A stretch of 64,000 nucleotides of DNA from an uncultured Gammaproteobacteria bacterium (GTDB lineage Bacteria; Pseudomonadota; Gammaproteobacteria; Steroidobacterales; Rariloculaceae). A program made the translations under genes and the position numbers. Positions 5,509-59,377 of the stretch are shown here, in pieces (position 1 is the first letter of the stretch; each line of letters starts with the position of its first letter). The DNA lies in NCBI GenBank assembly GCA_964503125.1, contig CAZCZE010000021.1:13207-77206 (forward strand). Reading direction: 5' to 3'. A model generated the notes under the pieces. The model saw only the letters and a list, made by a program, of their open reading frames with translations, was not told the DNA's origin and made no database searches.

Positions 5509-5511
5509 CGT

Positions 5512-6600: not shown

Positions 6601-6728
6601 TTGGTTGCCGTGGCGCTTGCAATCGCCAGCGCGAGCGCGGCGAGCACTCGACCGCTCCAGAGCAAGGCGATATCGCCGAGTCTTTCGGGGTCGAGCCAGA
6701 TCGCAAAAAGTTCGCGCAGCTCCGCCAT
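6597..6728 (-). pseudogene. 43-aa membrane ORF, probable stub of an MscS-like N-terminus, coupled to prfA
   Basis: ATG 6728: [43 protein letters not shown]; its TGA overlaps the prfA GTG (GTGA). Confidence 0.45.
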
Positions 6729-6854
6729 CGGCAAATTGTCGAAGAATCATTGGGGGATCACAAGCAAGGCCCGTGTGGCGCGAGGCCGCGGCGCCGCCGC
6801 AAAGTGCGCTGCAATCGAGCATTAATCGGCCGACGGCTGGGGTATATTGAAGCC

Positions 6855-9256: not shown

Positions 9257-9289
9257 ACGAAGCGCCACCGGCCCGCCACAATAGTGGCT

Positions 9290-9364
9290 TGGGGCGTAGC
9301 CAAGCGGTAAGGCAACGGGTTTTGATCCCGTCATACGTAGGTTCGATTCCTACCGCCCCAGCCA
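9290..9364 (+). tRNA. tRNA-Gln (anticodon TTG)
   Basis: Acceptor stem TGGGGCG/CGCCCCA, anticodon arm acggg-TTTTGAT-cccgt, T-loop GTTCGAT, encoded CCA. Confidence 0.97.
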
Positions 9365-9399
9365 CTCGTGCCGAGTGAACTCGAACCAGGAGCCGGAAC

Positions 9400-10353: not shown

Positions 10354-10406
10354 CCTGGCCGGGTTTGGCCCTGCTATGATGCGCGGCTTCCTGGAGGTGC
10401 CGCCCC

Positions 10407-11171
10407 GTGAACGTGAAAGCCACATTCGAATTGGCCGGAGAGCCACGCCCGCAGCTCGGCCGCACGGAGAGCCGTCGCCTGCGCAAAGCGGGCAAAGTAC
10501 CCGCCATCATGTACGGTGGCGGCGAGCCCCCGGAAGCCGTGGTGCTCGACCACAACACGCTGCGTCATCAGATGAGCCGCGAGGCGTTCTTCACGAGCAT
10601 CCTCACGCTCAAGGTAGGTGCGAAAGCACAGCAGGTGGTCGTCAAGGGCGTCGAACGCCACCCGGTCAAACCACAGATCATGCACCTCGACTTGCAGCGC
10701 GTGCGCGAGGACGTCGAGATCACGCTGTCGGTGCGCATCCACTTCACGGGCGAGGCCGAAGCCAAGGGCGTCAAGGACCAAGGCGGCGTCGTCGATCACT
10801 TGATGACCGACGTCGAGATCCGCTGCTTGCCGCGTCACTTGCCGGAGTACCTCACGCTCGACGTCACGAACCTCGAGCTCAACCAGATCTACCACTTGTC
10901 GGACATCAAGCTGCCCGAAGGCGTGACGCTCGTGGCGCTCGCGGGCGGCCACGATCACCCCGTCGTCGCGATCAACCCGCCGCGCGCCGAGGAAATCGAC
11001 ATCCCCGTCGAGGCCGAGACGCCCGCGGGCGAAGTGCCGGCCTTGGCCCAGGTCGAGCCGGCCGCCGAAGGCGAAGCCGGTGCCGAGGCGAAGCCCGACG
11101 CCAAAGGCGCGAAACCCGAAGCGAAGGGCGCAAAGCCCGAGGCCAAGGCCAAGCCCGAAGGCAAGAAGTAG
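10407..11171 (+). CDS. rplY: 50S ribosomal protein L25/general stress protein Ctc
   Basis: SRRLRKAGKVPAIMYG, RHPVKPQIMHLDL, GVKDQGG; position between prs and pth. Confidence 0.95.
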   Translation: MNVKATFELAGEPRPQLGRTESRRLRKAGKVPAIMYGGGEPPEAVVLDHNTLRHQMSREAFFTSILTLKVGAKAQQVVVKGVERHPVKPQIMHLDLQRVREDVEITLSVRIHFTGEAEAKGVKDQGGVVDHLMTDVEIRCLPRHLPEYLTLDVTNLELNQIYHLSDIKLPEGVTLVALAGGHDHPVVAINPPRAEEIDIPVEAETPAGEVPALAQVEPAAEGEAGAEAKPDAKGAKPEAKGAKPEAKAKPEGKK

Positions 11172-15888: not shown

Positions 15889-17190
15889 ATGCAGTCGGCG
15901 TCGTCCATCTCACGCGCGGATTGGCGCGTGATCCTGCTCGCGAGCTTAGGCGGCGCGCTCGAGTTCTACGACTTCGTCGTCTACAGCCAGTTCGCGCGGT
16001 ACATCGGCAGCAACTTCTTTCCGAACGACGACCCCATGGTGTCGCTCGTCGTGTCGTTCGGCGTGTTCGCCGTCGGCTATTTCGCGCGGCCGCTCGGCGG
16101 CCTCTTCTTCAGCCACATCGGCGATCGCATCGGCCGGCGCCGCGTGCTGATCATCACGATTCTCGCCATGTCCGCGGCCACGGCCGGCATCGGCCTGCTG
16201 CCGACCTACGCGCAGTGGGGCATCGCGGCCTCGGTGCTGCTCGTCGCGCTGCGTATCGTGCAGGGTTTCTGCCTCGGCGGCGAGCTGCCGGGCGCCATCT
16301 CGTACGTCGTCGAGACCGCGCCGCGGCGCTCGGGCTTCTCCGTCGGCGTCGTATTCTTCTGCGTGAACACGGGCGTCCTGCTCGCCGCACTACTCAATGT
16401 CGTCGTGCACGAGACGCTGACCGTCGAGCAGATCGGCGACTGGGGCTGGCGCATCGGCTTTCTCGTGGGCGGCGGTTTGGGCCTCATCAGCTTCTTCTTG
16501 CGGCTCTCGCTCGAGGAGAGCAAAGAGTTCGCGCGCATTCGCAAGGTCGCGGGCGCGTCGGCCGTGCCGATCGCAGAGCTCCTGCGTACGCATTCGCGCG
16601 CCGTGCTCGTCGGTGTCGGGATTCTCGCCGTGACGGCGGGCTTCAACGGCCTGCTGTTCGCGATGCCGGCGTTCCTGCCGCAGACGATGGGCTACGAGGC
16701 GGCGCACGCGAGCGCGGCGCAGACCGTCGCGCTGGCGATCATGTCCGCAGGCCTATTGTTCGTGGCCTGGCTCAGCGATCGCGTGTCGCGCGCGCGGTTG
16801 ACCCTCGTCGGCACGGCGCTGCTCGTGCTGCTCGCGTGGCCGTTCTTCGCGGCCGCAGAGAGCCGCAGCGTCGACTTGCTGTTGCTGTTCGCGCTGGCCG
16901 GCGCCGTCGGCTCGATTTGCGCCGGCACCGTGATCGCGATCTCCGCCGATCTCTTCCCCACGCGCATTCGCTTCTCGGGCGTGGCGCTGTCCTACAACCT
17001 CGCCTTTACGCTGTTCAGCGGGCTCGCACCCGTGATCGCCGCGCTGCTGGCGCGCAACACGGGAGTCGCAGCGACAGCCGCGTACTACATGATCGGCTGC
17101 GCCGCGCTATCGTTCGGCGCGGCGCTCGTCATGCACCGGTACGACGGTCGGATCCTCGCAGACGCCGCCGCGCACGATCGGCCCGGCTGA
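15889..17190 (+). CDS. MFS transporter (metabolite:H+ symporter type)
   Basis: LEFYDF, RPLGG, GDRIGRR, GGELPG, 12 TM pattern. Confidence 0.92.
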   Translation: MQSASSISRADWRVILLASLGGALEFYDFVVYSQFARYIGSNFFPNDDPMVSLVVSFGVFAVGYFARPLGGLFFSHIGDRIGRRRVLIITILAMSAATAGIGLLPTYAQWGIAASVLLVALRIVQGFCLGGELPGAISYVVETAPRRSGFSVGVVFFCVNTGVLLAALLNVVVHETLTVEQIGDWGWRIGFLVGGGLGLISFFLRLSLEESKEFARIRKVAGASAVPIAELLRTHSRAVLVGVGILAVTAGFNGLLFAMPAFLPQTMGYEAAHASAAQTVALAIMSAGLLFVAWLSDRVSRARLTLVGTALLVLLAWPFFAAAESRSVDLLLLFALAGAVGSICAGTVIAISADLFPTRIRFSGVALSYNLAFTLFSGLAPVIAALLARNTGVAATAAYYMIGCAALSFGAALVMHRYDGRILADAAAHDRPG

Positions 17191-17203: not shown

Positions 17204-18220
17204 TCATTGGCGGCATTCGTAGGGATGTAGCTCTTCGCCCGGCCGCCACTCCCAAGCCTTGCGCAAGGTGACGGGGCGCGAGAAGGTCGAGGGATCCGTC
17301 ACGATCATCGTGTATTCGAGGCGGCTGCCGTCGGCGTTCAGCGCGAAGCGCTCCTCGAGCGCCGCGTCGGGACCGAGCGGAATGCCCGTGCCGTTGAGCC
17401 AGCCGTAACCGAGGTTCGTCGTCGACACGACGAGCGTCTGACCTTCCCACCGCCCGTGCGACACGCCGAGCAACGTGCGTGCGCCGGTGCCGGCCGGCGC
17501 CTCTCGCGCCATCGCGATGCGGCGCACCGTGTCGTACTCCTCCATCTTGAGGAGGATGTCGTCGCCGTCCCTGGCGAGCTCCATAGGATACGGCTGCTCC
17601 ATGATGTACGGCATACCCTTCGGTGCGCAGTTCGCCGTGGGGTCGTCGCGCAGCGGGTCGAACTCGGCGCGCACGGCCACGGCCGCTTCCGTGAGCGGTA
17701 GCTCGCCGCCCCAAAACGCCGGCGGGCTCGTGGCGTTCGTCCAAACGCGAAAGAGCCCGAGGCCTTGCGAATCGGCGGCCACGGCGCTGCGGATGTCGCG
17801 GCCGATCGTTTGCTGCGACCAACGCGGCCTGACCGCCGCGCCGAACAGGATCTCGTTGCCGTTCGGCAGCAGCATGTTCGTCAGCCACATGACGTTGTTC
17901 GCCTGCCGCCCGCCGTTGCCGGCGATGCGCACGCGGTTGCCGATGCTCACGAGCTCGGCCGTGAGGCCGAAGCGGCTCACGATGCTCACCGAGTTCGTCT
18001 CGATCTCCCAGAGCCGCTCGACGCCGTCGGCGCCCGCGCCGCGCATCTTAAAGCGGACGTGCGGGTTGACCCACGCCACTTCGGTAATCACGCCTTCGGC
18101 CTCGATGAGCGGGCCGGCGCGGTCGTAGACGGCTGCCGTCGAATGGTGGGCCGAAGCGGCTGCCGCGGCGACGAAACTCGCGGCGACGATGCTCACCCGA
18201 GCGGTAAACACGACTGTCAT
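17204..18220 (-). CDS. Secreted fusion: DUF6152-like N-domain plus uncharacterised beta-rich C-domain
   Basis: Signal peptide then HHS...WVNPH...WEIE...GNRVRIAG; C-domain DPTANC..GMP...PYP...SHGRWEGQTLV...YEC. ATGA overlap with the upstream SBP gene. Confidence 0.8.
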   Translation of the reverse strand: MTVVFTARVSIVAASFVAAAAASAHHSTAAVYDRAGPLIEAEGVITEVAWVNPHVRFKMRGAGADGVERLWEIETNSVSIVSRFGLTAELVSIGNRVRIAGNGGRQANNVMWLTNMLLPNGNEILFGAAVRPRWSQQTIGRDIRSAVAADSQGLGLFRVWTNATSPPAFWGGELPLTEAAVAVRAEFDPLRDDPTANCAPKGMPYIMEQPYPMELARDGDDILLKMEEYDTVRRIAMAREAPAGTGARTLLGVSHGRWEGQTLVVSTTNLGYGWLNGTGIPLGPDAALEERFALNADGSRLEYTMIVTDPSTFSRPVTLRKAWEWRPGEELHPYECRQ

Positions 18221-18993
18221 CGTTCGACTCCTTTGGCCGCGAACGTCGCGACCGCGGCCGGCGCCGCGACGCAGTCGACGAGCGCGCGGGCCGCGTCTTG
18301 GCTCGTCGCGTGCGCACCGAGTGCCGCCGCGAACGACACATAGCTCTGAAACTCCGCGGGCAGCGGCCCGACGAGCTCTAGGCCTTCGACGGGCAGAACC
18401 TCGCTCACGAGCGTGAACAGAAGCTCGGCCTCGCCCGCGACTACTTTGGCCGCCGCGCGCACCGAGCCCTGCTCGAGCAGCGCCTTGGCCTTCATCTCTG
18501 CCGAAATCCCTAGGTGCTCGAACATGCGCTCGATGTATATGCGGCTCGCACCGTCCTGCGCGTAGGTCACGGACTTCGCAGCCAGCAGCGTTTGCTTGAT
18601 GCCGGTGGGCGTCGCGATGTCGGGATGGCGCGCGCCCGCGCGAACACCGACGCCGATGCCGGAGCGACCGAGCGGCGCAAGCGAGTCCTTCGTGAGATGG
18701 CCCGCCCCTGCGAGCTCGGCGGCGACCTCCGTCGTCGCGAACACCACGTCGACGCCCTCGCCCGCCGCCACACGTTGGCGAATCGACGCCGACGTGCCGT
18801 AGTCGATGGTCACGCTGCGCCCGAGCGTGCGCTCGCACTGCGGCACGAGCTCGTCGAGCGCGGCGCGCACGCCGTTCGAGGACAGCACTCGGACGTCCGC
18901 GCTCTGCGCCGCGGCCTGGGACGTGCTCGCGCCGGCGAGCGCCACTAGCGCGGCCGCCAGGGCCGCACGCGGCGCTGCCGCCGCCGCGCTCAT
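18217..18993 (-). CDS. ModA-like (SBP_bac_11-type) substrate-binding protein
   Basis: Signal peptide; LSSNG, GTSASI, GEGVDVV, RSGIGVGV, GASRIY, SEVLPVEG. Confidence 0.85.
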   Translation of the reverse strand: MSAAAAAPRAALAAALVALAGASTSQAAAQSADVRVLSSNGVRAALDELVPQCERTLGRSVTIDYGTSASIRQRVAAGEGVDVVFATTEVAAELAGAGHLTKDSLAPLGRSGIGVGVRAGARHPDIATPTGIKQTLLAAKSVTYAQDGASRIYIERMFEHLGISAEMKAKALLEQGSVRAAAKVVAGEAELLFTLVSEVLPVEGLELVGPLPAEFQSYVSFAAALGAHATSQDAARALVDCVAAPAAVATFAAKGVER

Positions 18994-19448
18994 CGCGTTT
19001 CGGCCGCGGTGCTCGTGGCGGGGCCCATGCCCCAGACTTGGATCAACGCCGGCTCCTCTTTCGCGCCGTCGTAATGCACCTGCCCGGCCTTGTGGTAGAC
19101 GTAGGTGCCGGCCTTCACGGGCACGGTGCTGTCGGGATCGAACGTGTTGCCCGTGCCGAGCCACCACGTGCCCTCGAGCACGACGAAGAACCGGTCGTTC
19201 GGGTGGAAATGCGGCCGGCTCATGTTGCCGGGCAGCCACCGCAGCTGAATGACGTACGGGCCGGGCTGCGACGGGTCGCCAAACAGCACGGCTTGCTCGT
19301 TGGTGCCGGCGGCGTTCCTCACGAATTTGATGTCCTCGGGAGCCACGAAGTCGACGGCGTTGCGGTCGATGTCCGCCGCCCCCGAGCCCGTGAGCACGAC
19401 GGTCAGGATTCCAAGGGCGGCGGTGCAGAGGCGAATGGGGCCTTTCAT
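18990..19448 (-). CDS. Secreted cupin-domain protein
   Basis: GDPSQPGPYV, SRPHFHPNDR, H(K)AGQVHYDGAKEE cupin His motifs. Confidence 0.88.
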   Translation of the reverse strand: MKGPIRLCTAALGILTVVLTGSGAADIDRNAVDFVAPEDIKFVRNAAGTNEQAVLFGDPSQPGPYVIQLRWLPGNMSRPHFHPNDRFFVVLEGTWWLGTGNTFDPDSTVPVKAGTYVYHKAGQVHYDGAKEEPALIQVWGMGPATSTAAETR

Positions 19449-48454: not shown

Positions 48455-48664
48455 CTAGCGCTTGCCCGTGAACACGAGCAGGCCGAGGCCCGCGACTGCG
48501 GCGACCGCACCGCCGATGAGGTACAGCATCGTCTGATCGCTGTACTCACCCGTCAGCGTCTCACGCACCTCCTCGAGCGGCGCGTCGGTTGCTTGGAACC
48601 CGAAGTACAGCGCTATGGCGCCCGCGACGAGCAACACGAGGCCGGCGATCTTCTTGCTGGGCAT
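48455..48664 (-). CDS. DUF3185-like small membrane protein
   Basis: Two TM helices flanking EVRETLTGEYSDQTMLYL. Confidence 0.75.
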   Translation of the reverse strand: MPSKKIAGLVLLVAGAIALYFGFQATDAPLEEVRETLTGEYSDQTMLYLIGGAVAAVAGLGLLVFTGKR

Positions 48665-48670
48665 GATGGG

Positions 48671-50188
48671 CTACTCCGGTAACGCACACTCGAAACTCGT
48701 GGCATCGTTGGTGTCACCGCGGCCTTCGTAGCGCGCCACCTGCGGGTGTGGGCACAGCGGCCGCGTCATGGCGACGTTGCCGTCGCGCACGGCGCGTGCG
48801 GTGATGCTCGCGGGCTTGACTCCCTTCTCGACCCAGCCCGCAAGCGCCGCCATCCAGTCGACCTGATCGGGGCCCACTCCGCCGCGGCAGTGGCCGACGC
48901 CCGGCAGCATGAAGAGCCGCAGGTAGTCGTCGGTGAGCGCCGCACCGTCGCCGCCCGTGGTCTTGCTCGCGAACTCGACGACGTCGTCGTAGTACTCGAG
49001 CGTCTGCTGCGGCATGACGCCGGGATCGTTCCAGCCGTGCCAGACGATGAGCTTGCCGCCGGCGGCCTTGAAGTCGCGCAGATCGGGATCGACGGCATTC
49101 AAGACGCCGAACAGCTTCGCGTCGATGAGGTCGACGTCGGAGTCGAAGTCGAACGTCTTCCAATCCCAATTCGGATTCTCGAAGCCCAAGCCGTTGAGCA
49201 CCGCGCCCGAGATCGCGAACGGCGTTTGGCCGTTCATGAGCATGCCCCACCCCGGATTGCCGGGCTGCGGGCCCTCGCCGCCGGGCTCGAGGCCGGCATA
49301 GATCTGCGCGCCCGTGCGCGGATTCACGGCGCCCTGGTAGGCAAGCTCGAGTGCCTCGATCTGCGGCGCACTCAAGCCCGGCACTTTGCTCGGATCGAAA
49401 TCGCAGGTACTCGGATCGGTGAGGATTCCATCTTTGACCCCATCGTTGGCGTCGCACTGCGCGAGCGCGGCTTCGCCCACGCGCGTGAGGTCCTCGCGCG
49501 TCAACACGGCACCGGGCTTCTTGAGCGTGGCGTGCGCCATCCAGAGCTGTCCCATGTGCAGCTGTGTGAAACGGTTGACCGGCGCGCCGGACGCGATGCC
49601 GTCGTAGTCGTCGGGATAGCGTTGCGCGGTCATGAGGCCTTGCCGCCCGCCCGTCGAGCAGCCGTTGAAGTACGAGTACTCGGCCGCCCGCCCGTAGTGC
49701 GCCTCGATCACGGCTTTCGCCTTGACGGTCATCTCGTGGATCGCGCGATAACCGTAGTCGATGACGCGCTGACGGTCGGCCATCCAGGTCGTGTCGGAAG
49801 CCACGTGACCCGTGTCCGTCGACGACGAGGCGTAGCCCGCACGCACGGCTTCGGCCATCGCGGGATAACTGATGATGCCGGCGAGCCCGCCGCCGCCGAC
49901 GGCTTGGAAGCGGCCGTTCCAGGCGCTGCCCTCGGGCAACCAGACCTCGAAATTGATCGCCGGCGCCACCGTGCCCGCGACGCGACACATAGCCGGCACC
50001 GCCAGGGGCTGCTGCATGCCGGGCGCCGCGAAATTACCGGCGGCGACACGCTCGGCGACCGTGATTTTCGCCTCCGGGAGCGCGAGCTTGGCTAGCTCTG
50101 CGCACGCCGTCGCGGCGTAAGCCGGCGCGCCGAAGCAGAACGAAACGGCAGATGCGAGCGTCGAGAGCGTGAGCAACGGGCGCTTCAT
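48671..50188 (-). CDS. Tannase/feruloyl esterase-family hydrolase, secreted
   Basis: NGCSTGG, HGWND, PGVGHC, RPLCPHP. Confidence 0.93.
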   Translation of the reverse strand: MKRPLLTLSTLASAVSFCFGAPAYAATACAELAKLALPEAKITVAERVAAGNFAAPGMQQPLAVPAMCRVAGTVAPAINFEVWLPEGSAWNGRFQAVGGGGLAGIISYPAMAEAVRAGYASSSTDTGHVASDTTWMADRQRVIDYGYRAIHEMTVKAKAVIEAHYGRAAEYSYFNGCSTGGRQGLMTAQRYPDDYDGIASGAPVNRFTQLHMGQLWMAHATLKKPGAVLTREDLTRVGEAALAQCDANDGVKDGILTDPSTCDFDPSKVPGLSAPQIEALELAYQGAVNPRTGAQIYAGLEPGGEGPQPGNPGWGMLMNGQTPFAISGAVLNGLGFENPNWDWKTFDFDSDVDLIDAKLFGVLNAVDPDLRDFKAAGGKLIVWHGWNDPGVMPQQTLEYYDDVVEFASKTTGGDGAALTDDYLRLFMLPGVGHCRGGVGPDQVDWMAALAGWVEKGVKPASITARAVRDGNVAMTRPLCPHPQVARYEGRGDTNDATSFECALPE

Positions 50189-50364: not shown

Positions 50365-51627
50365 ATGTCGAGCGTTTCGAAGCTTGCTGCCGCGTCCGTC
50401 GGCATGGTCGCGGTCATCGCCGCAGCCTGGCCCAGCGCCACGCTGGCCGGTTCGCTCCCGACCGCCCGGCCCGAGGAGGTCGGGTTGTCGTCCGAGCGGC
50501 TCGCGCGTATCGGCCCAGCGATGCAAAGACACATCGACGCCGGCGAGATCGCGGGCGTCGTGACGCTCGTCGCGCGCCGCGGGCGAATCGCGCATTTCGA
50601 AGCGTACGGGTTCGCGGACATCGCCAAACGCACGCCGATGCGCACCGACCACATCTTCGGCTTGGCGTCGTCGTCGAAGCCGATCACGGCCGTCGCTATC
50701 ATGATGCTCGTCGAAAGCGGCGAGATCCGGCTGACGGATCCCGTCTCCAAGTTCATCCCCGAGTTCGCGGCGCCGGCGCAGGTCGCCGTGCCGAAACAGG
50801 GGGGACCCGAGGGCTCCTACGATCTCGTGCCGGCGACACGACCGATCACGGTCGCCGATCTTCTGAAGCACGGTTCCGGCCTGGTCAGCGGCGGCCTCGG
50901 CGCCCGCGCGGCGAACACCATCGCGCCGCGCACGCCTCAGGACACGCTGGTCACGTACATTGCGAAGCTCGGCGCCGTGCCGCTCGATTTCCAGCCGGGC
51001 ACGCTCTGGCGCTACAGCGGCCTCGCGGGCTTCGATGTGCTGTCACGCATCGTCGAGGTCGCGTCGCAGCAGACGTTCGACGAGTTCTTGCGCGAGCGCA
51101 TCTTCGAGCCGCTCGACATGCCCGATTCGGGGTTCTACTTCACGGGCCGGCAGGTGGACCGCCTCGCCATGATGCACGCGCGGCGCGACGGCAAGCTCGA
51201 GCCGGCACCGCGCGAGCTGTCCCAAGTGTATTTCTCGGGCGCCGGCGGGCTCGCCACTTCGGTCGAGGACTATCTACAGTTTACGCAGATGCTCTTGAAC
51301 GGCGGCGAGCTCAACGGGCGCCGCTTGCTCGGCCCGCGCACGGTTGAGCTCATGACGGCCAACCACACGGGCGACATGGTCAACGGCCAGTTCGGGCGGC
51401 CTGCGCGCGGCATGGGCTTCGGGCTCGGCATGCAAGTCGTGCTCGATCCCGTGGCCGCGGAGCTTGCCGTCTCGAAAGGCGCGATTAGCTGGCCCGGCGG
51501 CACGGGCGTCGCTCATTGGATCGAGCCGGCCGAAGAGCTCGTGTCGATCTACTTCATCCAGGGCGGGCAAGGCGGCCCCGCGCGCCAGGCGTTCGAGAAC
51601 GCCGTGCGCCAGGCCATCATCGACTGA
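50365..51627 (+). CDS. Serine hydrolase (beta-lactamase class C/esterase family), secreted
   Basis: ASSSKPIT (SxxK), PGTLWRYS, SWPGGTG. Confidence 0.92.
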   Translation: MSSVSKLAAASVGMVAVIAAAWPSATLAGSLPTARPEEVGLSSERLARIGPAMQRHIDAGEIAGVVTLVARRGRIAHFEAYGFADIAKRTPMRTDHIFGLASSSKPITAVAIMMLVESGEIRLTDPVSKFIPEFAAPAQVAVPKQGGPEGSYDLVPATRPITVADLLKHGSGLVSGGLGARAANTIAPRTPQDTLVTYIAKLGAVPLDFQPGTLWRYSGLAGFDVLSRIVEVASQQTFDEFLRERIFEPLDMPDSGFYFTGRQVDRLAMMHARRDGKLEPAPRELSQVYFSGAGGLATSVEDYLQFTQMLLNGGELNGRRLLGPRTVELMTANHTGDMVNGQFGRPARGMGFGLGMQVVLDPVAAELAVSKGAISWPGGTGVAHWIEPAEELVSIYFIQGGQGGPARQAFENAVRQAIID

Positions 51628-51953: not shown

Positions 51954-53015
51954 GTGACCCGTCGCCCTGTAGCCGCCTCGGCAGCGATAGTCGCGCTCCT
52001 CGTGGGCGGCGGGTGCACGGACGTGACGCAATCTACTGAACCGCAATGGTCCTTGGTCTTGCACGGCGGCGCCGGCACCATTGAGCGCGCCGAGCTCACG
52101 CCCGACGTCGAGGCCCAGTATCGCGACGCGCTCGGCGAGGCGGCGAAGCGCGGCGGCGCCATCCTCGCGAGCGGCGGCTCGGCGCTCGACGCCGTGACGG
52201 CGACCGTGGCGTATCTCGAGGACAGCGAGATCTTCAACGCGGGACGCGGCGCGGTGTTCACGGCCGAGGGCCGCAACGAGCTCGACGCGTCGATCATGGA
52301 CGGGCGCACGCGCGCGGCGGGCGCCGTGGCCGGGCTCACGCGCACGCGCAACCCGATCCGCGCCGCGCGCGCGGTCATGGAGAGCTCCCCGCACGTGATG
52401 CTCGTAGGCGACGGTGCCGAGGCATTCGCGCGCTCGCAGGGGCTGGAGCAAGTCGAACCCGGCTATTTCTTCACCGAACGGCGCTGGCAGCAGCTACAGG
52501 AACTCCTACGGCAACAGAATCTGCCGTTGCCGCCGCGCCCCCCCGGCGCGCCACCCGCCGAGCAAGCGCGTGCCGCCGGAACGCCCGACGACCACACGTT
52601 CGGCACCGTCGGCGCCGTCGCGTTCGATCAAGCCGGCAACCCCGCGGCCGCCACGTCCACGGGCGGCACGACCGGCAAACGCTGGGGCCGCGTCGGCGAC
52701 TCGCCGATCATCGGCGCGGGCACCTATGCACAGAACGGCGTCTGCGGCGTGAGCGCCACGGGCACGGGCGAGTTCTTCATCCGCGCGGGCGTGGCGCGCG
52801 CGATCTGCGCGCGCATGGAGCTCACGGGCGAGAGCGCGGCGCAAGCAGCCATAACGGCGATCGCCGAAGTCGGCGCGCTCGGCGGCGACGGCGGCGTCAC
52901 CGTGCTCGACCGGAGCGGCCGACACGCCTGGGCGATGAACACTTCGGGCATGTACCGCGCGTATCTGGCCGACGGCGGTGAGCCGTCGATCGAGATTTAC
53001 GCGGGCGACGAGTAA
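51954..53015 (+). CDS. iaaA: Isoaspartyl peptidase/L-asparaginase (Ntn hydrolase)
   Basis: LHGGAG, FNAGRG, ELDASIM, GTVGAVA (Thr nucleophile), STGG, GRVGDSP, SATGTGE. Confidence 0.92.
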   Translation: MTRRPVAASAAIVALLVGGGCTDVTQSTEPQWSLVLHGGAGTIERAELTPDVEAQYRDALGEAAKRGGAILASGGSALDAVTATVAYLEDSEIFNAGRGAVFTAEGRNELDASIMDGRTRAAGAVAGLTRTRNPIRAARAVMESSPHVMLVGDGAEAFARSQGLEQVEPGYFFTERRWQQLQELLRQQNLPLPPRPPGAPPAEQARAAGTPDDHTFGTVGAVAFDQAGNPAAATSTGGTTGKRWGRVGDSPIIGAGTYAQNGVCGVSATGTGEFFIRAGVARAICARMELTGESAAQAAITAIAEVGALGGDGGVTVLDRSGRHAWAMNTSGMYRAYLADGGEPSIEIYAGDE

Positions 53016-53031: not shown

Positions 53032-53472
53032 TTATTGCTCGGCCTGCCCGCCTTCGACCGTCGGGTCGCCCGGCGTGCCGACGCCCGTCGAGCCCACGAA
53101 CAACCGCGAGCCGTCCTTGACGAGCGTCACTTGCGTGCCCGCGGCGCGGTGGGTGCGGTCGCGCGCTTGGAAGCCGCGGATGCGGATCTCGGTGCCGGCC
53201 GGCAGCGAGTCGCGGTTGAAGCCGCGGCGCAGCAGCGCATTCGGCGCAGCGCCTTCGAAAGCCCAGTCCTGCACCTCGCCGCTGTCGGTCTTTACGGTGA
53301 TGTAGATCCACGAGTGCGGATTGCTGAAGCGCATTTCCTTGACGACGCCGACGACCTCGACGGGCCGGTTGGCATCGAACTCCGAGGCGAACGAGTGGTG
53401 GCCCTCGCCGCGCGCGCCAGCGAGCAGCGCCGCGGCGGCAACGGCGGTCAAGAGCGATAGCTTCGCGTTCAT
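53032..53472 (-). CDS. DUF6152-like secreted protein
   Basis: Signal peptide then HHSFASEFD, FSNPHSWI, WAFE, LPAGTEIRIRG. Confidence 0.85.
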   Translation of the reverse strand: MNAKLSLLTAVAAAALLAGARGEGHHSFASEFDANRPVEVVGVVKEMRFSNPHSWIYITVKTDSGEVQDWAFEGAAPNALLRRGFNRDSLPAGTEIRIRGFQARDRTHRAAGTQVTLVKDGSRLFVGSTGVGTPGDPTVEGGQAEQ

Positions 53473-53481
53473 GGCTCCTCC

Positions 53482-54324
53482 TTACTTGATCGGTTCCTTG
53501 AGGAGCTCGCCGTAGAGCAACGGCTCGGCGAGCTCGACACATTTGTACTCGAAGATCTCGGCGTTCGGCTCGACGCGTCGATAGAGCGGCATCGCAATTT
53601 TCCAGGGCCGCGAGTAGGTGCGCGGATCGGCGATCGTCGCTTCGTACCAGAGGTGGTTGTCGCCCATCGGCGTGTAGCGCTCGGTCACGGTCATGCCCTG
53701 GTGGTAGTTGCCGGCGCGGTCGAGCCAGGTGTCGCGAATCTGGCCGAACACCTCGATGACGAGCGTCTCACCCTCCCAGTGGCCGTTCGACCAGCCGAGC
53801 CATTGATCGACGAGCACCTCCTGCGGATTCAAGTGGTTCGTCATGCGCACGGTGCGATTCGACGTGGCGAACTCGTAGACGAACATGATATCGCCGTCGC
53901 CCTGCACGATCTGGAACGGATACGGCAGGTACGTCGAGCGCGGAATGCCGGCGCGGTAGCACTTCGCCTCGGGATCGTTGGCGGGCCAGCCGGCGTGGTT
54001 CTCGTCGCGCTGCTCGAGGGCTTCGGGCAGGTACGGTATCGTGCCGCCCTCGACGACGCTCTGCCCCGGCGGCACGCCGAACAGCGCGCCGAGCCGCCAC
54101 TGCCCCGGCACGGCCTGCATCGGGCCGCCCTCAAGGTTCCAGTGCGCGGTGTTGAGCGCCTGCCACACACCGTTCAAGTTCGGATGGCCGTCGATGCGCG
54201 CGGGGCCCGAGATCGTCGGCGCTGCAGACGCGGCGGCCTGCTCGGTCGACGTCTCTGCGGCGGGGCCGCAGGCCGCGAGCAACGTGCAGCACGAGACGAG
54301 CGCAGCGAGTTTTCTTGTTGGCAC
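53482..54324 (-). CDS. Uncharacterised lipoprotein, partner of DUF6152
   Basis: Lipobox LLAAC; GHPNLNGVW, DPEAKC..G.P, GWSNGHWEGETLV, TERY, YSRPW, EYKC. Confidence 0.8.
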   Translation of the reverse strand: MPTRKLAALVSCCTLLAACGPAAETSTEQAAASAAPTISGPARIDGHPNLNGVWQALNTAHWNLEGGPMQAVPGQWRLGALFGVPPGQSVVEGGTIPYLPEALEQRDENHAGWPANDPEAKCYRAGIPRSTYLPYPFQIVQGDGDIMFVYEFATSNRTVRMTNHLNPQEVLVDQWLGWSNGHWEGETLVIEVFGQIRDTWLDRAGNYHQGMTVTERYTPMGDNHLWYEATIADPRTYSRPWKIAMPLYRRVEPNAEIFEYKCVELAEPLLYGELLKEPIK

Positions 54325-54342
54325 GGCTCGATACTCCGGCGG

Positions 54343-54531
54343 CTACTCGCGCTCGTGCTCTTGGCGGTTGGCCTGCGCCTCGCGCACGCGCGCTTCATAG
54401 TTGCGCTCGGCCGTGTCCTCCGCGGGCGTGGTCGCGACGACGATCGGCACCTGCGCCGCGGCGGCCGTGGGCATGACCACGCTGGCGCATACCACTGCCC
54501 GGCGCAACGCCGCCCATTCGCTGCTTCGCAT
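54343..54531 (-). CDS. Small secreted peptide (62 aa)
   Basis: AGGGGG before ATG 54531; signal-like region ending AAAAQ; charged helical tail. Confidence 0.5.
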   Translation of the reverse strand: MRSSEWAALRRAVVCASVVMPTAAAAQVPIVVATTPAEDTAERNYEARVREAQANRQEHERE

Positions 54532-54636
54532 AGCCCCCCTTCTACGCCGCGCGCTCGAGCGCGAGCGTTCTTTGCTCGATAGTAGTACTGCCTCTTCGGG
54601 CAGCACAACGGGGAGCCCGGCAAGCCGGCCGACGGC

Positions 54637-55155
54637 TCAGAGGCCGAAGGCGTAGAGCAGCGTGTCGTTGTACATGATCATTCGGCCGAAATAGATGACG
54701 CCGAACCAGGCGACGAGCGACACGACGGCCACGACCTTCGCGGCCGGCGCCGCGTCGCCCGCGGCGGGGACGGCTTCGGCGGCCCGCGCAATGCCCGTGA
54801 AGTAGTACGCCACGAGGTTGAGCGCGGCGATGAGGATCAGCAGCATCTTTATCTGGAACGCTAGATTGCCGAGGTAGGCCATCGGCCCGCCCGCGATGTT
54901 GCCCGTGACGAATACGAGCCCGGTGCCGACGTTCAACAAGAACCCCACCACGCCGACGGGGATGAGCTTCTCGAGGCTCGCAATCGGCACACCTTTGCCT
55001 AGGCCTAAGATCCGTAAGTCGAGCCAGCCGACCGTGCCGATCAAGAGCGCCATGCCGATGAAGTGCAGCATTTCGCAGATCGGCCACACCCAATCGTAGT
55101 CGTTGACGAGCTGCGCGAGCCAACCGAGGTCGAGTATTGCCGCCAACGCTTCCAT
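54637..55155 (-). CDS. DUF6644-like membrane protein
   Basis: WPICEMLHFIG, DLRILG, TGLVF, FQIKM, GRMI; 4 TM helices. Confidence 0.8.
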   Translation of the reverse strand: MEALAAILDLGWLAQLVNDYDWVWPICEMLHFIGMALLIGTVGWLDLRILGLGKGVPIASLEKLIPVGVVGFLLNVGTGLVFVTGNIAGGPMAYLGNLAFQIKMLLILIAALNLVAYYFTGIARAAEAVPAAGDAAPAAKVVAVVSLVAWFGVIYFGRMIMYNDTLLYAFGL

Positions 55156-55183
55156 CAGTGCCTTTCCCCAACGCGTCAGCGCG

Positions 55184-55699
55184 TCAGATGCCGAAGTAGT
55201 ACTCGATGAGGTACGGGTACGCCGTCAGACGACCCGCGATGATGGCGAGGCCCCAGCATGCCAGCGAGGCGATCGCGAGCTTGCGCGCCGACGCCGGGGC
55301 GTCGCCGGCGCTCGCGAGCTCGCTCGCGAACACCCGGTGGCGCAGCAACCGCATCACGAGCACGCCGCCTGCGACGAACACGAGCTTCGCGTAGAACAAC
55401 GGATTCGCGAGCATGCCCGTGGCATTGGCCGCGAGCAGCGCGAGGCCCGAGAGCGCGTTGACCCAGAAACCCACGTACATGACGGGAAACAGCCGGCCGA
55501 GCGGCGCGAGCGGAATGCCCTTCGCAAAACCGAGCAGGCGCAGCGCGACCGCGGAGCTCAGGCCGACGACCACGGCGAGGCCCATCGCGTGCAGCGACAG
55601 CACGAGTGTGTACGCCCAGAGCGACGGGGACTCGCGAACGAACGTGGGATAAGCGCTGTTCTCTATGGCTTCGAGGAGTTGCAGCACGGCTTCCGTCAC
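55184..55699 (-). CDS. DUF6644-like membrane protein (tandem paralogue)
   Basis: LSLHAMG, ALRLLG, SGLALL, FYAKL, GRLTAY; 4 TM helices. Confidence 0.8.
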   Translation of the reverse strand: MTEAVLQLLEAIENSAYPTFVRESPSLWAYTLVLSLHAMGLAVVVGLSSAVALRLLGFAKGIPLAPLGRLFPVMYVGFWVNALSGLALLAANATGMLANPLFYAKLVFVAGGVLVMRLLRHRVFASELASAGDAPASARKLAIASLACWGLAIIAGRLTAYPYLIEYYFGI

Positions 55700-55850
55700 C
55701 TCTCGGCCCACGCGCTTGCAGCAAGCGCCCAGGCGTCGTCGTTGTCGCGTGGCAATGTGTCACGCAACGGCGAGCGCGCTGAATACGTAGAAGCACGTAC
55801 GAGCGGTTGAGAGTCCGGCCCCGCCGGATCGAGTGGACGCGGCCCGCGCG

Positions 55851-56240
55851 TCAGCGCGTCTTGGAATCGCGTGCGCGGCGGATCAGGTCAGCCATCGCCT
55901 CGAGATCCGCCGGATCGAGCCGCCCCAGCATCTCGGCAATTCGCTCCAACGTGCGCGCCATTCCCTTTTCGAGGGTCGCGCGTCCTATCGTCGGGGCAGT
56001 CACGGCTTCGACGACGGAGAGCTCGGAGATGGAGACCGGCTCGCGTCGAGCCACGACGCTGAGCGTGCTCAACCGTTCCCACGTCAGGTCGCGCAACAAG
56101 GCCGCGTTCTTCAGGCCTCGGGACAGCCGATAGAACGCCAGGACAGCCTTTGGAAAGGTCGAGCGGCCGGAAGCGAGACCGGCCCGGGGCGGCCCCGAGA
56201 CTTCGTTTGCGCCGTTTTGCGGCCTGACACTGCGGGTCAA
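55851..56240 (-). pseudogene. MarR-family regulator with an internal in-frame deletion
   Basis: LTWERLSTLSVV...PVSISELS..EAVTAPTI runs directly into GRATLEKG; the rest of the recognition helix and the wing are absent. Confidence 0.6.
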
Positions 56241-56403: not shown

Positions 56404-56676
56404 ATGCTCGTGGTCTCGCGCAAGGAGAATGAGTGGATCCGGATCGAGCCCGTCGAGGGCCTCGATCCGGCCCTTACGTTGCATGACGTTTTTGCGGACG
56501 GACCGATCATCGTCGAGGTGATGCACGTTGGCCGGCGCGCGCGGCTGGTCATCGACGCACCTCCCGCACTCAAGATCTCGCGCGGTTCGCCGGCCGCCCC
56601 GGGTGAGGCGCCCGCCGTGCCGGAGCCGGGCGTTGCCGCAACCGCCGTCGCTGCACTGCTGCAAAGCTCGCCATGA
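56404..56676 (+). CDS. Atypical CsrA/RsmA-family protein
   Basis: MLVVSRKENEWIRI...IIVEVMHVGRRARLVIDAPPALKISR follows the CsrA pattern, with an insertion after strand 2 and no HREE. Confidence 0.75.
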   Translation: MLVVSRKENEWIRIEPVEGLDPALTLHDVFADGPIIVEVMHVGRRARLVIDAPPALKISRGSPAAPGEAPAVPEPGVAATAVAALLQSSP

Positions 56677-58178
56677 GACCAGCGACGAGCACGCTACCGG
56701 CGCGCCCAGAGATTCTGCCGAAGTCCGTCGACGGCAGCGGTCTGCTCGCGGCAATTCTGGTTTCGCCCCGCGGCCGCGTGCTCGGCGTGAACAAAGAGCT
56801 CGAACGGCTGCTCGGCTATCCCTCACGCGAGGCGCTCCTGAACAGGTACGTGCCGGACGACCTCCTCCGGCAATCGGGCGACTGGGCGCGCTGGGCGCAG
56901 GTAGCGACCGACGGCGACGCCAAAGACATCGAGACCGAGTTCGTGACGGCCGACGGGCGCAGCGTTTACCTGCGCGGCAAGATCGAACGCGTCACGCGGC
57001 ACAAGAGCGGAGCCGCATCCGTGCGGGGCATTTTCGTCGACGACACGCCACTGCACCGGCTCCGCGAGCTCTCGCTCGAGACGGCGAGAATCGAGGCTGC
57101 GCTCAGTCTCGCGGCTGGAGTCTCCCACGACTTCAACAACCTCCTGACCGTTCTCGTCGGCAATCTGTATCTCGTTTCGGAGCTCGTCCGGACGGACGCC
57201 GCATTGCACGAAAAAGTACGCAAAGCACGCGACGCCGCGAAACGGGGTGCTGCTCTCGCGCGGCAGCTTCTCGACGTCGCTCGAGGCGCCGACGCCGACG
57301 TCGGTGCCGCGCTCGTCAACGCTAAGCAGGTCGTCGAAACGCTGTCGCCGCTTCTGAAGGCTGTGCTCGGAGCCCGCATCAGTCTCAAGACGACCGTCGG
57401 CCAGAACGTCCCTGCGGTCAACGTCAATCGAGCACAGCTCGAGAGCGTCGTCACCAACCTCGTCATCAACGCGCGCGACGCGATTCCCGACGGCCGCCCG
57501 GGGACCGTCACGATCACCGTGGGCAAACGAGAAATCCCGGCGGCCAACGTGACGGCGGTCAAGGCCGGCTCGTACGTCGAGCTGGCGGTCGGCGATGACG
57601 GCTGCGGGATTCCGTCCGAGCTCATCGAGCGCGTGTTCGAGCCCTTCTTCTCGACCAAGGCCAAGACCAAGGGGAATGGCCTTGGGCTGCCGATGGTCCG
57701 CTGGTTCGCCGAGAAGGCCGGCGGCGCCGTATCGCTCAAGAGCCGTCCCGGCGAAGGGACCGCCGTCGCCGTCCTCTTGCCCGCGCATCACACGGAGGCT
57801 GCGGACACGGCGGGTCTCACGATGCCGCTATCGTCGCTCCCGAGCGGTAACGAGCAGGTCATCGTTCTTTCGGACGACGACGAGTTCCGCGTGACGGTAG
57901 AGCAGATCCTTAGCACGTTGGGATACCGCACGTTATCGCGAGACCACGGTAGCGACGACGACGCGCTGCGCGCCGTGCTTGTCGTGGACGCGCAAGCGCT
58001 TCGGACGGAGGCGGCCGAGCGAATCGATGCGCTCGTGCGCCGTCAAGGCCGAGCGCTCGGCGTCGTCGTGGTCGGCGAATGCCAGGCCGACTGGCCGATC
58101 ACGCCCGTGACGATCGGGAAGCCATTCACTTTGCCCGAGCTCGCCAAAGCTGTTCGCACTGCGGCCGAAGGAGTCTGA
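56673..58178 (+). CDS. PAS-containing hybrid histidine kinase with divergent receiver
   Basis: SHDFNNLL H-box, NLVINARDA, DDGCGI, FEPFFSTK, GLGL; C-terminal REC-like domain ending IGKPF. ATGA overlap with the csrA-like gene. Confidence 0.92.
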   Translation: MRPATSTLPARPEILPKSVDGSGLLAAILVSPRGRVLGVNKELERLLGYPSREALLNRYVPDDLLRQSGDWARWAQVATDGDAKDIETEFVTADGRSVYLRGKIERVTRHKSGAASVRGIFVDDTPLHRLRELSLETARIEAALSLAAGVSHDFNNLLTVLVGNLYLVSELVRTDAALHEKVRKARDAAKRGAALARQLLDVARGADADVGAALVNAKQVVETLSPLLKAVLGARISLKTTVGQNVPAVNVNRAQLESVVTNLVINARDAIPDGRPGTVTITVGKREIPAANVTAVKAGSYVELAVGDDGCGIPSELIERVFEPFFSTKAKTKGNGLGLPMVRWFAEKAGGAVSLKSRPGEGTAVAVLLPAHHTEAADTAGLTMPLSSLPSGNEQVIVLSDDDEFRVTVEQILSTLGYRTLSRDHGSDDDALRAVLVVDAQALRTEAAERIDALVRRQGRALGVVVVGECQADWPITPVTIGKPFTLPELAKAVRTAAEGV

Positions 58179-58180
58179 CC

Positions 58181-59377
58181 ATGCCCCAGAAGGATCCCGT
58201 TCTCCTTGCGCTCGACGACGAGGAGGAAATAGCCGAAACCGTGTGTGCCATCGGCGCCAGAGCCGGTTTCCGTACCATCTCATCCACGACGCCGGCGCGA
58301 ATCCGCGAGCTCGTCGAGCAAAACCACCCGGACGTCATCGTGCTCGACCTGCAGATGCCCGGCCTCGACGGCGTCAGCGCGCTCCGGCACCTCGCCGACG
58401 TGCGTTCAACCGCGAAAATCTTTCTCGTGACCGGGATGGACGAGCGCACGATCGCCTCCGCAGAGCAGTACGGGCTGCGCCGTGGCCTCACGATTTTCGG
58501 CACGCTCCAGAAGCCCTTCGATCCCGACGAGCTCTTCGCGCGGCTGGAGCGCGCGCATGCGGCCATTCGCCCGTTGACGGCTCACGACCTCGAACAGGCC
58601 ATCGCCAACGGCGAGCTCGTGGTCCACTACCAGCCGATCATCCGGCGGTTCGCGGACAACACTTGGGACATCGCGGCAGTCGAAGCCTTACTGCGCTGGA
58701 ACCACCCGATCCGCGGGCACCTGACGCCCGACTCGTTCGTGTCGATGGGCGAGGCTGGCGGCTTGAGTCGCGCCATCACCGACTTCGTTCTCCAACGCGG
58801 CATCGAACAGCTCAAAGGCTGGGAGGCGCTGCGTCTGCGATTGGGGCTTAGGATCAACGTCGCCGCAACGCTGATTTCCGACATCGGCTTCCCGGATCGC
58901 CTCGAAGCGATGCTCGTTCAGCACTCCCTCGATGCCGAGATGCTCGCCTTGGAGATCACGGAAACGGCGATGCTCGAGCAGACGCCCGACGCGTTCGACA
59001 TTCTCACGCGGCTCAGAATCAAGAACATCGGCCTCGCGATCGACGACTTCGGCATCGGCTATTCCTCGCTGACACAGCTGTTTCGGATGCCGTTCAACGA
59101 AATGAAAATCGATCGGTCCTTGGTCGGTCGAATCATCGAAGCGAAAGAAGCCATGATCATGGTCGACGCGCTCGTGGCGCTGGCGCACAAGCTCAACCTC
59201 GTGGTGTGCGCGGAAGGCGTGGAGAATCAGGCGACGCTCGACGCTCTCGGCGGATTCGGCTGCGACTTCGCGCAGGGCTATCACATCAGTCCGCCGGTGC
59301 CGGCCGCGGAGATCCCGAAGATCATCGCCCGCTGGGATCAGCAGCAGCACCGCCAGCCTGCGGCCAAGTCGCGCTAG
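58181..59377 (+). CDS. REC-EAL c-di-GMP phosphodiesterase
   Basis: DLQMPGLDG, KPF; EALLRW, LEITET, DDFGIGYSSL, KIDRS, AEGVE, QGY. Confidence 0.93.
   Translation: MPQKDPVLLALDDEEEIAETVCAIGARAGFRTISSTTPARIRELVEQNHPDVIVLDLQMPGLDGVSALRHLADVRSTAKIFLVTGMDERTIASAEQYGLRRGLTIFGTLQKPFDPDELFARLERAHAAIRPLTAHDLEQAIANGELVVHYQPIIRRFADNTWDIAAVEALLRWNHPIRGHLTPDSFVSMGEAGGLSRAITDFVLQRGIEQLKGWEALRLRLGLRINVAATLISDIGFPDRLEAMLVQHSLDAEMLALEITETAMLEQTPDAFDILTRLRIKNIGLAIDDFGIGYSSLTQLFRMPFNEMKIDRSLVGRIIEAKEAMIMVDALVALAHKLNLVVCAEGVENQATLDALGGFGCDFAQGYHISPPVPAAEIPKIIARWDQQQHRQPAAKSR

Follow-up and report, generated by a model that had tools for sequence, protein, structure and literature searches.

A DUF6152-barrel protein pair beside a DUF6644-like membrane pair in an uncultured gammaproteobacterium: a conserved envelope locus with a possible N-terminal-histidine metal site

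Background

A number of exported proteins bind Cu(II) through an N-terminal His that is exposed when the signal peptide is cleaved; YcnI, CopC, the lytic polysaccharide monooxygenases (LPMOs) and PmoB are examples (PMC8424229; PMC10952591). The histidine brace is defined as an N-terminal His together with a second His (PMC10952591). In YcnI, recognised by the same N-terminal-His logic, Cu(II) is bound by the N-terminal amine, a His side chain and a Glu, and its gene neighbours those of CopC and CopD (PMC8424229). Among membrane proteins, HemJ is a homodimeric b-type haemoprotein (PMC13564367). Here we describe a cluster of envelope-protein genes in a stretch of 64,000 nucleotides (contig CAZCZE010000021.1, positions 13,207 to 77,206, of assembly GCA_964503125.1; hereafter the window) from an uncultured gammaproteobacterium of the family Rariloculaceae. 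By analogy, the cluster resembles in principle the known N-terminal-His periplasmic metalloproteins with CopD-like partners.

The cluster is built of two modules. Module 1 (53032-54324) encodes a small exported DUF6152 protein, modelled as an OB-fold (oligonucleotide/oligosaccharide-binding fold), and a larger exported protein tentatively modelled as a calycin-like barrel; module 2 (54637-55711) encodes two small paralogous membrane proteins, A and B. The evidence behind our interpretation includes a His-His pair at the processed terminus of DUF6152, found in every copy examined, and the strict pairing or fusion of DUF6152 with the barrel protein. A His-His OB-fold subunit paired with a barrel protein has no described counterpart, and the four families concerned have no characterised member. 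A full-text literature search for DUF6152, DUF6644, PF19649 and PF20349 found no papers, and literature and PDB searches returned no known function or solved structure for DUF6644, DUF2214 or DUF6152. Single-sequence or profile searches of the PDB by sequence (by profile for A and B) found no structure related to A, B, the barrel protein or DUF6152. One match to Colicin S4 (E 0.0024) covered 58 residues only and was taken as chance. An earlier reading of the DNA, made from its letters alone and called the original prediction below, had regarded the locus as an undescribed system; a conserved envelope system lacking a described counterpart is indeed what was found.

The locus

The features discussed are as follows.
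53032-53472, minus strand: DUF6152 protein, 146 aa, signal peptide and OB-fold domain
53482-54324, minus strand: barrel protein, 280 aa, exported, with a lipobox
54343-54606, probably 54343-54531, minus strand: short open reading frame (ORF), 62 aa, P376 remnant
54637-55155, minus strand: gene B, four-transmembrane-segment paralogue of A, 172 aa
55184-55711, minus strand: gene A, four-transmembrane-segment membrane protein, 175 aa from the GTG at 55711
55851-56240, minus strand: MarR-family gene with an internal deletion, 129 aa, upstream of A
17204-18220, minus strand: DUF6152-calycin-like fusion, 338 aa, exported, at a separate locus in the same window

All five ORFs from A to DUF6152 lie on the minus strand, as had been predicted, separated by 28, 105 (to the likely start of the short ORF), 18 and 9 nt. 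They had been described as one five-gene locus; the five ORFs are real, but they amount to four working genes and one remnant, drawn from two modules. With the start chosen by an independent gene call, the product of gene A has 167 aa. The same gene order and the same start of the short ORF were found in a separately assembled Logan contig from the same soil metagenome, and a search of sequencing-run contigs found the locus in contigs of one soil metagenome only. The G+C content of the window is about 68% throughout. Neither sigma-70-like sites nor terminator-like matches exceeding those in shuffled sequence were found at the locus.

The DUF6152 protein

The assignment of the last gene in the cluster to DUF6152, already proposed in the original prediction, is firm: PF19649 is its sole Pfam hit, over residues 21-106, at 97.1 bits against a cut-off of 27 (E 6.5e-28). 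Its signal peptide is predicted to be cleaved at GEG/HHSF (the slash marks the site), and the mature protein would begin with two histidines. This arrangement is general in the family, of which about 3,700 clusters (90% identity) were retrieved. Every copy examined has small residues at -1 and -3 followed by His-His. A signal-peptide-like segment ends directly before the HH in 96 of the 98 copies scored automatically; the other 46 copies differ in spacing, and AxA/HH was recognised by eye in about 20 of them. Among 136 distinct copies, fusions included, H1 and H2 are conserved in 100%, D9 in 99%, N27-P28-H29 in 98-100%, and E49 and R58 in 96% each. Sites that bind metal through an N-terminal His show just this pattern: the His at the processed terminus is never substituted, and further His, Asp and Glu residues are invariant. 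The periplasmic metalloprotein partner that had been postulated at this locus is thereby plausible by sequence, for a reason, the universal mature His-His, that had gone unseen earlier. By analogy, DUF6152 is most probably a metal-binding subunit, with Cu(II) the likeliest metal.

The AlphaFold2 model of the mature protein (predicted local distance difference test, pLDDT, 80.4) has the strand order beta1-beta3, helix, beta4-beta5. Foldseek matched it to SSB, PriB and the N-domains of LysRS with probability 1.0, E 7e-4 to 1e-2 and template-modelling (TM) scores to the target of 0.5-0.6; as modelled, DUF6152 is an OB-fold protein. The first ten mature residues have a mean pLDDT of 67, as expected of a terminus modelled free of metal.

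Comparison with described proteins shows both likenesses and differences. As in YcnI/YcnJ of Bacillus subtilis (YcnJ being a CopC-CopD fusion) and in CopC/CopD, a small exported protein carries a conserved N-terminal His after signal-peptide cleavage, and its gene is linked to one for a polytopic membrane protein with a conserved His (PMC8424229; PMC12362106). However, DUF6152 is modelled as an OB-fold rather than a cupredoxin or CopC-type sandwich and has no DUF1775 or CopC Pfam match; it also has two N-terminal histidines, and a calycin-like protein is its obligatory partner, encoded beside it or fused to it. With the histidine-brace proteins (LPMOs, the PmoB CuB site, X325) it shares a processed N-terminal His and a second conserved His, and module 1 is in addition linked in genomes to a pyrroloquinoline quinone (PQQ) dehydrogenase. 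PQQ-dependent AA12 dehydrogenases fuel fungal LPMOs and are thus a known electron donor for a His-brace enzyme. Unlike the LPMOs and their kind, DUF6152 has no sequence or fold relation to them, and its ligand is likely to be small and hydrophobic rather than a polysaccharide. CusF, an OB-fold protein, binds Cu(I)/Ag(I) at a Met/His/Trp site within the barrel rather than at the N-terminus. CusF/SilF metallochaperones resemble DUF6152 in being small exported beta-barrels that bind metal, as observed in SilF (PMC10656224) and predicted for DUF6152, but they share no sequence similarity with it, and there are no CusCBA-type efflux genes at the locus.

The barrel protein and its pairing with DUF6152

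The 280-aa protein encoded just upstream of DUF6152 has a lipobox, LLAAC, at residues 15-19. It had been predicted to be a lipoprotein; this holds for the copy in the window but not across the family, in which a minority of homologues have a lipobox and most carry ordinary AxA signal peptides. The protein has no Pfam or NCBIfam match even at E <= 10. Its family comprises at least 7,036 clusters (90% identity) at E <= 1e-3 among 8,000 candidates scored; the best matches are 60-83% identical, and 'hypothetical' is the only name that any of them bears. With one genome scanned for each species, 574 loci were found, mostly in uncultured Gammaproteobacteria (including Ca. Rariloculus), Acidobacteriota/Vicinamibacterales and Rhodospirillales, and at least four copies of the module lie in one Ca. 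Rariloculus chromosome.

An alignment covering the 280-aa type, the longer P376 type described below and the fusions gave a conserved core of C122, Q141, R157, W183-x-G-D-T-L-V, E215, R216, D233 and C262, in which the Cys122/Cys262 pair is invariant. This core contains no His, and the superfamily offers no conserved His, Met or Tyr as an axial ligand, so that any metal ligands must come from DUF6152. The AlphaFold2 model (pLDDT 68.7, predicted TM-score 0.68) has eight beta-strands after a partly helical N-terminal region. Its best Foldseek matches, to the retinol- and fatty-acid-binding proteins CRBP and FABP, are weak (E 4e-3, TM-score to the target 0.46-0.51), and none was found at E <= 1e-3.

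The neighbourhood of the barrel gene was surveyed in its best 80 loci with our own ORF and hidden Markov model calls; these loci are the query's closest relatives, so that the counts describe that subfamily best. DUF6152 lies immediately downstream of the barrel gene on the same strand in 66 of the 75 loci with room for it, and elsewhere in the cluster in at least seven of the other nine (in L017 with a lower score; L060 is ambiguous). P376 was found within 3 kb of the barrel gene in 54 of 80. Fusion of the two genes has also occurred: 14 ORFs join DUF6152 to a barrel domain, always with DUF6152 first and AxA/HH kept. One of these, of 338 aa, is in the window itself at 17204-18220, where DUF6152 (57.6 bits, ASA/HHST) is followed by the calycin-like domain, and it constitutes Rosetta-stone evidence that the two module-1 proteins act together.

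Directly upstream of this fusion is an SBP_bac_11 gene (18217-19239, minus strand), and an MFS transporter gene (15889-17190, plus strand) is convergent with it. SBP_bac_11 also follows barrel and DUF6152 genes in L003-L005.

The short ORF

The ORF between B and the barrel gene probably starts at ATG 54531, behind the ribosome-binding site GAAGGGGGG, and would encode a peptide of 62 aa. Its signal peptide, which ends AAA/Q, is followed by QVPIVVATTPAEDTA and then ERNYEARVREAQ, and these are the N-terminus of P376 joined to its C-terminal region. P376 is a secreted protein of about 375 aa whose gene adjoins the 280-aa gene in related loci; it is a paralogue of the 280-aa protein, with which it shares motifs such as WEGDTLVVE and IFEYSCHE. 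Besides the signal peptide, the short ORF retains about 15 mature N-terminal and about 20 C-terminal residues of P376. At the junction, 54410/54409, the nearest relative, L014, carries 861 bp (287 codons) more, and the DNA on either side is 81% (5') and 93% (3') identical to it. Among about 15 billion proteins the 62-aa product forms a cluster of its own; neither it nor P376 belongs to a Pfam or NCBIfam family, the peptide having no match even at E <= 10. Because the DNA is contiguous around the point where L014 has the additional segment, and because the product is a singleton, we regard the ORF, on these alignments, as a recent in-frame deletion remnant of a P376 gene. The deletion is also present in the independent Logan contig.

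A peptide acting as a genuine component of the system was considered and ruled out by the DNA alignment and the singleton look-up. The original prediction had listed a secreted peptide and three exported products in all. The signal peptides were borne out in each case (AAA/Q in the peptide, the lipobox LLAAC in the 280-aa protein and GEG/HHSF in DUF6152), but the peptide proved to be the stump of a deleted paralogue and not a family.

The membrane pair

A and B are paralogous (BLASTP E 5e-14, 38% identity over 68 aa). Both have four hydrophobic segments and carry the motifs LHAMG and FYAKL (A) or LHFIG and FQIKM (B), in agreement with the predicted pair of four-helix paralogues with a His in the first transmembrane helix (TM1) and a Lys in the third (TM3). 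Both residues are conserved. They are invariant in 54 A-type and 66 B-type sequences, and in the superfamily as a whole (107 representatives clustered at 50% identity) the TM1 His is present in 98%, the TM3 Lys in 97%, a loop Arg in 97% and two Gly in 100%; loss of the His, which would have spoken against the prediction, was thus not observed. Invariant residues in A are R26, H41 (TM1), R58, N85, K109 (TM3) and R161, and in B E28, H31 (TM1), D46, R48, N75, N86, K103 (TM3), N113, K140 and R158, together with the C-terminal motif MYNDT. In B, the conservation moments of TM2 and TM3 deviate by no more than 4 degrees from the directions of Asn75 and Lys103 (p = 0.004 and 0.014). TM1, the helix with the His, shows conservation all the way round, as would suit a helix at the centre or at an interface. 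A reading by eye of hydropathy and the positive-inside rule places the N-terminus of A and B probably in the periplasm and the conserved polar residues mostly in the periplasmic half (E28, H31, N86, N97 and K103, and Y162-T165 in B).

Both proteins had been labelled DUF6644. As single sequences they fall below the Pfam threshold: A scores 16.2 bits on DUF6644 (PF20349; cut-off 27), and B has no DUF6644 match at E <= 10 and only a weak one to DUF2214 (PF09980), at 14.9 bits. The label stands through intermediate sequences. DUF6644 matches were found in 16 of 32 B homologues, all sub-threshold (best E 1.2e-4). A combined A and B profile found 4,960 representatives (50% identity clusters), and of ten among its best matches (E 1e-29 to 1e-41) six pass the DUF6644 cut-off; four of these, matching the profile at E 1e-32 to 1e-41, are P0379 with 117.9 bits, P0407 with 73.4, and P0368 and P0372 with 31.5 each. 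Judged from these intermediates, A and B are divergent relatives of DUF6644, whereas DUF6152 is a clear member of its own family. Two of the six, scoring 118 and 73 bits, are tandem double-domain relatives, and these fused forms lead us to take a two-domain unit as the working form. The B family gave 643 matches of near-constant length, and of 80 metagenome loci, 67 extend far enough to show what directly precedes B, which in all 67 is an A-type gene.

No match to CopD (PF05425) was found for A or B at E <= 10, nor among the 32 B homologues at E <= 1, and no Pfam or NCBIfam family match linked A or B to HemJ. DUF6644 and DUF2214 are presumably members of Pfam's CopD-like clan. The haem ligand of HemJ is a conserved TM1 His. 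A and B resemble HemJ/PgdH2 protoporphyrinogen dehydrogenase, a haem-b dimer, in being small polytopic membrane proteins, but they are two distinct paralogues and their context is not tetrapyrrole synthesis. From CopC/CopD the locus differs in that its membrane partner is a four-helix DUF6644-like pair, present in a minority of loci only, and in that the gene context is catabolic, not copper homeostasis. By analogy, A and B look like a heterodimer that binds metal or haem.

Linkage of the two modules

Seen from module 1, linkage is rare: A or B was found anywhere in the locus in 4 of the 80 barrel and DUF6152 loci. From the A-B side, barrel-like and DUF6152 genes lie within 2.5 kb downstream in 12 of 28 loci and within 4 kb upstream in 14 of 23, and on either side in 11 of the 18 loci with both flanks. 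The order A-B-cupin-barrel-DUF6152 occurs in L006, L102, L108 and L140, P376-barrel-DUF6152-A-B in L013, and divergent or convergent arrangements in many other loci. These linkages, which involve about 60% of the membrane pairs, extend over several phyla; they occur in Gammaproteobacteria and Sphingomonadales and in divergent sequence subfamilies, and at least three orders or orientations in such subfamilies are the pattern produced by repeated selection for linkage.

In the cultured Novosphingobium sp. PP1Y, the megaplasmid carries barrel and DUF6152 genes divergent from A and B, with AFA/HHSF intact (the records are without annotation, and the ORFs are our own calls); the presence of this four-gene version in a cultured strain makes genetics feasible. 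The plasmid is Mpl, and the locus (L175) spans 652574-667089 of NC_015583.1, with the four genes at about 664.5-667.0 kb. Cultured Novosphingobium also has further calycin-like genes directly after TonB-dependent receptor genes (in L176, at 4443-6941 and then 6938-7645). An M20 peptidase gene adjoins DUF6152 in these Novosphingobium loci (L175/L176), and an M20 peptidase gene also lies beside a lone A-B pair in L010/L011.

The closest relative of A-B in the window is L177, with 86% DNA identity over 1,183 bp; homology stops 17 bp after B. There (7643-10630) A and B are followed, in place of barrel and DUF6152, by a 537-aa protein with no Pfam hit and a DUF1501 protein. Tannase, beta-lactamase-family, MarR and ABC genes are rearranged between the window and L177. 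On the evidence of this locus, the DUF6644 pair may serve different exported partners.

Recurrent neighbours

PQQ dehydrogenases of the methanol/ethanol family are present in 26 of the 80 barrel loci. Half of the 34 copies (17) are adjacent to and co-directional with a barrel-type gene, typically in the order PQQ dehydrogenase, barrel, DUF6152. Their best PDB relatives are 7wmd, 9m2c, 4cvb and 4mh1 (E about 1e-126 to 1e-130), and they also resemble the NCBIfam 'acido-empty-quinoprotein' group. In the enzyme of L020 no CxxCH motif was seen and there is no haem c domain. In 39 of 80 A-B loci, A is closely preceded by a gene for an MFS transporter whose nearest family is that of the aromatic acid/H+ symporters. 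Other neighbours are tannase/feruloyl esterase (in the window too), carboxylesterases, VAO-type oxidases dependent on flavin adenine dinucleotide (FAD), cupins, SnoaL-like proteins, an intradiol dioxygenase domain, SBP_bac_11 proteins and TonB-dependent receptors. CopC, PCuAC, YcnI, CopA, CueO, Sco, copper regulators and metal sensors were not seen among the annotated neighbours. This multi-copy, catabolic, PQQ-dehydrogenase setting favours a redox or oxidative role over metal homeostasis.

The quinoproteins beside barrel and DUF6152 genes (L020 9193-11028, L062 6047-7789 and others) read W-D-x-D by eye, for example HWDLDH and HWDQDH, where the DepA-like PDB relative 7wmd reads W-D-S-E. Lanthanide-dependent enzymes are marked by an additional Asp at the second position after the catalytic one. 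An accessory function tied to TonB-dependent receptors was examined as a general explanation and set aside, as the receptors occur in only about 11/80 and 8/80 loci.

Functional interpretation

The reading that we tentatively favour is an N-terminal-His periplasmic metalloprotein module in oxidative catabolism, with the DUF6644-like heterodimer supplying metal or electrons. The barrel (lipo)protein and the OB-fold DUF6152 would form an obligate two-subunit periplasmic unit. Signal-peptidase cleavage would expose His1-His2 of DUF6152. The metal would have His1 and the free amino terminus as ligands, joined probably by His2 or His29 and by Asp9 or Glu49; Cu(II) in a histidine-brace-like site would be the most likely occupant. 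The barrel subunit would offer a pocket for a small ligand, probably hydrophobic or aromatic. The two-subunit unit would act as a redox or oxidative component of periplasmic catabolism, often encoded in the same operon as a soluble PQQ dehydrogenase, and it usually has a third, larger barrel paralogue (P376), which in the window has been destroyed by deletion. A and B would form a heterodimer whose conserved His, Lys, Arg and Asn bind a cofactor or metal, and transfer of metal or electrons would run from this pair to the periplasmic unit, in the manner of CopD or the haem-b protein HemJ.

Several points weigh against this interpretation. A His-brace site is not a typical electron carrier; two thirds of the barrel loci have no PQQ dehydrogenase; and, with so few barrel and DUF6152 loci containing A-B, most copies work without a dedicated adjacent membrane pair. 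The juxtaposition of the modules in the window is recent, to judge from the different exported pair in L177. No copper-handling genes or metal regulators were seen among the annotated neighbours, and the barrel model is only moderate, with weak calycin matches.

The alternative that survives best, although we consider it unlikely, is an electron chain from PQQ dehydrogenase through a DUF6152 and barrel carrier to a haem-b A-B heterodimer and on to the quinone pool; the carrier would use Cu, or else a haem b that sits in the barrel with the N-terminal histidines as its ligands. Such a chain would account for the PQQ dehydrogenase genes (7wmd/4cvb/4mh1 type) directly upstream of barrel and DUF6152 in many loci and for an enzyme such as that of L020, which has no haem c domain of its own. 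The strong conservation of the TM1 His in both paralogues would fit haem binding, and HemJ shows that a small membrane protein can be a dimeric b-type haemoprotein (PMC13564367). However, most barrel and DUF6152 loci have neither a PQQ dehydrogenase nor A-B nearby, the barrel family lacks a conserved axial ligand, a conventional acceptor such as a cytochrome c may serve the dehydrogenase instead, and the likeness of A and B to HemJ is an analogy with no family match behind it.

Lower in probability, and ranked by us below a role in oxidative catabolism, is a dedicated system for acquisition and homeostasis of copper or another metal, of the CopC/CopD or YcnI/YcnJ type, in which DUF6152 would be the chaperone and A-B the importer. 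The universal His-His of DUF6152, the distant relation of A and B to DUF6644 and DUF2214, the probable periplasmic placement of their conserved polar residues by hydropathy, and the fact that CopD neighbours YcnI and CopC (PMC8424229) all speak for it. Against this, 76 of the 80 barrel and DUF6152 loci have no A-B, and a homeostasis system would not be expected in the four or more copies that one Ca. Rariloculus genome contains. CopA, CueO, Sco and metal sensors are missing from the annotated neighbours, where PQQ dehydrogenases, esterases (tannase among them), FAD oxidases, cupins and an MFS transporter of the aromatic-acid type are found instead. CopD gave no Pfam match at E <= 10, and the scheme would leave the obligatory barrel partner without a role. 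It was to CopD/CopC-type uptake or a membrane electron-transfer module that the original prediction had likened the locus. A conserved envelope system with paralogues and signature His and Lys residues was upheld, but the CopD/CopC layout was not: DUF6152 does not have the CopC fold, and the missing CopD match, the scarcity of A-B and the catabolic neighbours tell against it as well.

About equally improbable is a non-redox role in ligand handling. A hydrophobic substrate, or a cofactor such as scavenged PQQ with its metal, would be bound and carried through the periplasm by the barrel and OB-fold proteins, with A-B as a small permease or a dock in the membrane. In favour of this, Foldseek matches the barrel model best to fatty-acid- and retinol-binding proteins, the conserved Arg, Gln and Glu of the barrel could bind a carboxylated ligand, and TonB-dependent receptors, MFS transporters and SBP_bac_11 proteins are among the neighbours, as are the PQQ enzymes resembling the 'acido-empty-quinoprotein' group. 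However, a processed His-His that never varies, accompanied by Asp, His and Glu, is more to be expected of a metal site than of a ligand shuttle; the receptors are found at few loci, and there is no homology to known binding-protein families.

A bolder proposal, to which we give only a slim chance, is that DUF6152 and the barrel protein form a new class of periplasmic copper oxygenase or peroxygenase, in which a His-brace OB-fold subunit would cap the barrel's ligand pocket and the reductant would be the operon-encoded PQQ dehydrogenase or a haem-b DUF6644 membrane heterodimer. If so, it would be a bacterial small-molecule counterpart of the LPMO/AA12 partnership, and the many copies in soil Gammaproteobacteria, Acidobacteriota and Sphingomonadales would be the outcome of an expansion of the oxygenase family in which each copy acquired its own substrate. 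Least probable of all is that two unrelated modules were joined by a rearrangement that also damaged flanking genes: this would agree with L177, where homology ends just after B and other genes follow, with the lack of A-B in L014, the nearest barrel and DUF6152 relative, and with a deletion stump at the junction and an internally deleted MarR gene upstream, but the modules adjoin in 11 of 18 fully flanked A-B loci in at least three orders or orientations.

To return to the N-terminal-His metalloprotein interpretation, the barrel and DUF6152 families are very large, and the soil and sediment bacteria that carry them, abundant but for the most part uncultured, have several copies in each genome. 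Taken together, the His-His terminus, a barrel partner that is strictly paired or fused, and the association with PQQ dehydrogenase and the membrane pair provide a testable hypothesis for four families without assigned function. Should the metal site be real, DUF6152 would add a new fold to the few N-terminal-His (histidine-brace-type) metalloproteins, and the unit could turn out to be a redox partner that has so far been missing for soluble quinoproteins, or else a new periplasmic enzyme that takes part in the oxidative breakdown of aromatic or hydrophobic compounds.

Flanking genes

The 129-aa ORF upstream of A has no Pfam match and was identified by alignment to the 164-aa MarR protein of L177, relative to which it has lost 33 codons in frame from the winged-helix region. 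By this alignment it is probably an inactivated regulator, and its tie to the cluster is uncertain. Its deletion is the second in-frame internal deletion in the vicinity, near that of 861 bp in the P376 remnant.

On its other side the cluster is flanked by genes for a tannase/feruloyl esterase (48671-50188, minus strand; 371 bits), a beta-lactamase-family serine hydrolase (50365-51627, plus strand) and an Asparaginase_2/isoaspartyl peptidase (51954-53015, plus strand). Tannase genes recur near barrel and DUF6152 loci in L012, L013, L014, L052, L074 and L177. Beyond the MarR-family gene, a 90-aa ORF (56404-56676, plus strand) has a CsrA match just below the threshold (25 bits against a cut-off of 27). 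After it come genes for a PAS/histidine kinase (56673-58178) and a response-regulator-EAL-like protein (58079-59377), and the three may form a local regulatory unit. Between the ABC-transporter and tannase genes lies a 69-aa ORF (48455-48664, minus strand) with two hydrophobic segments.

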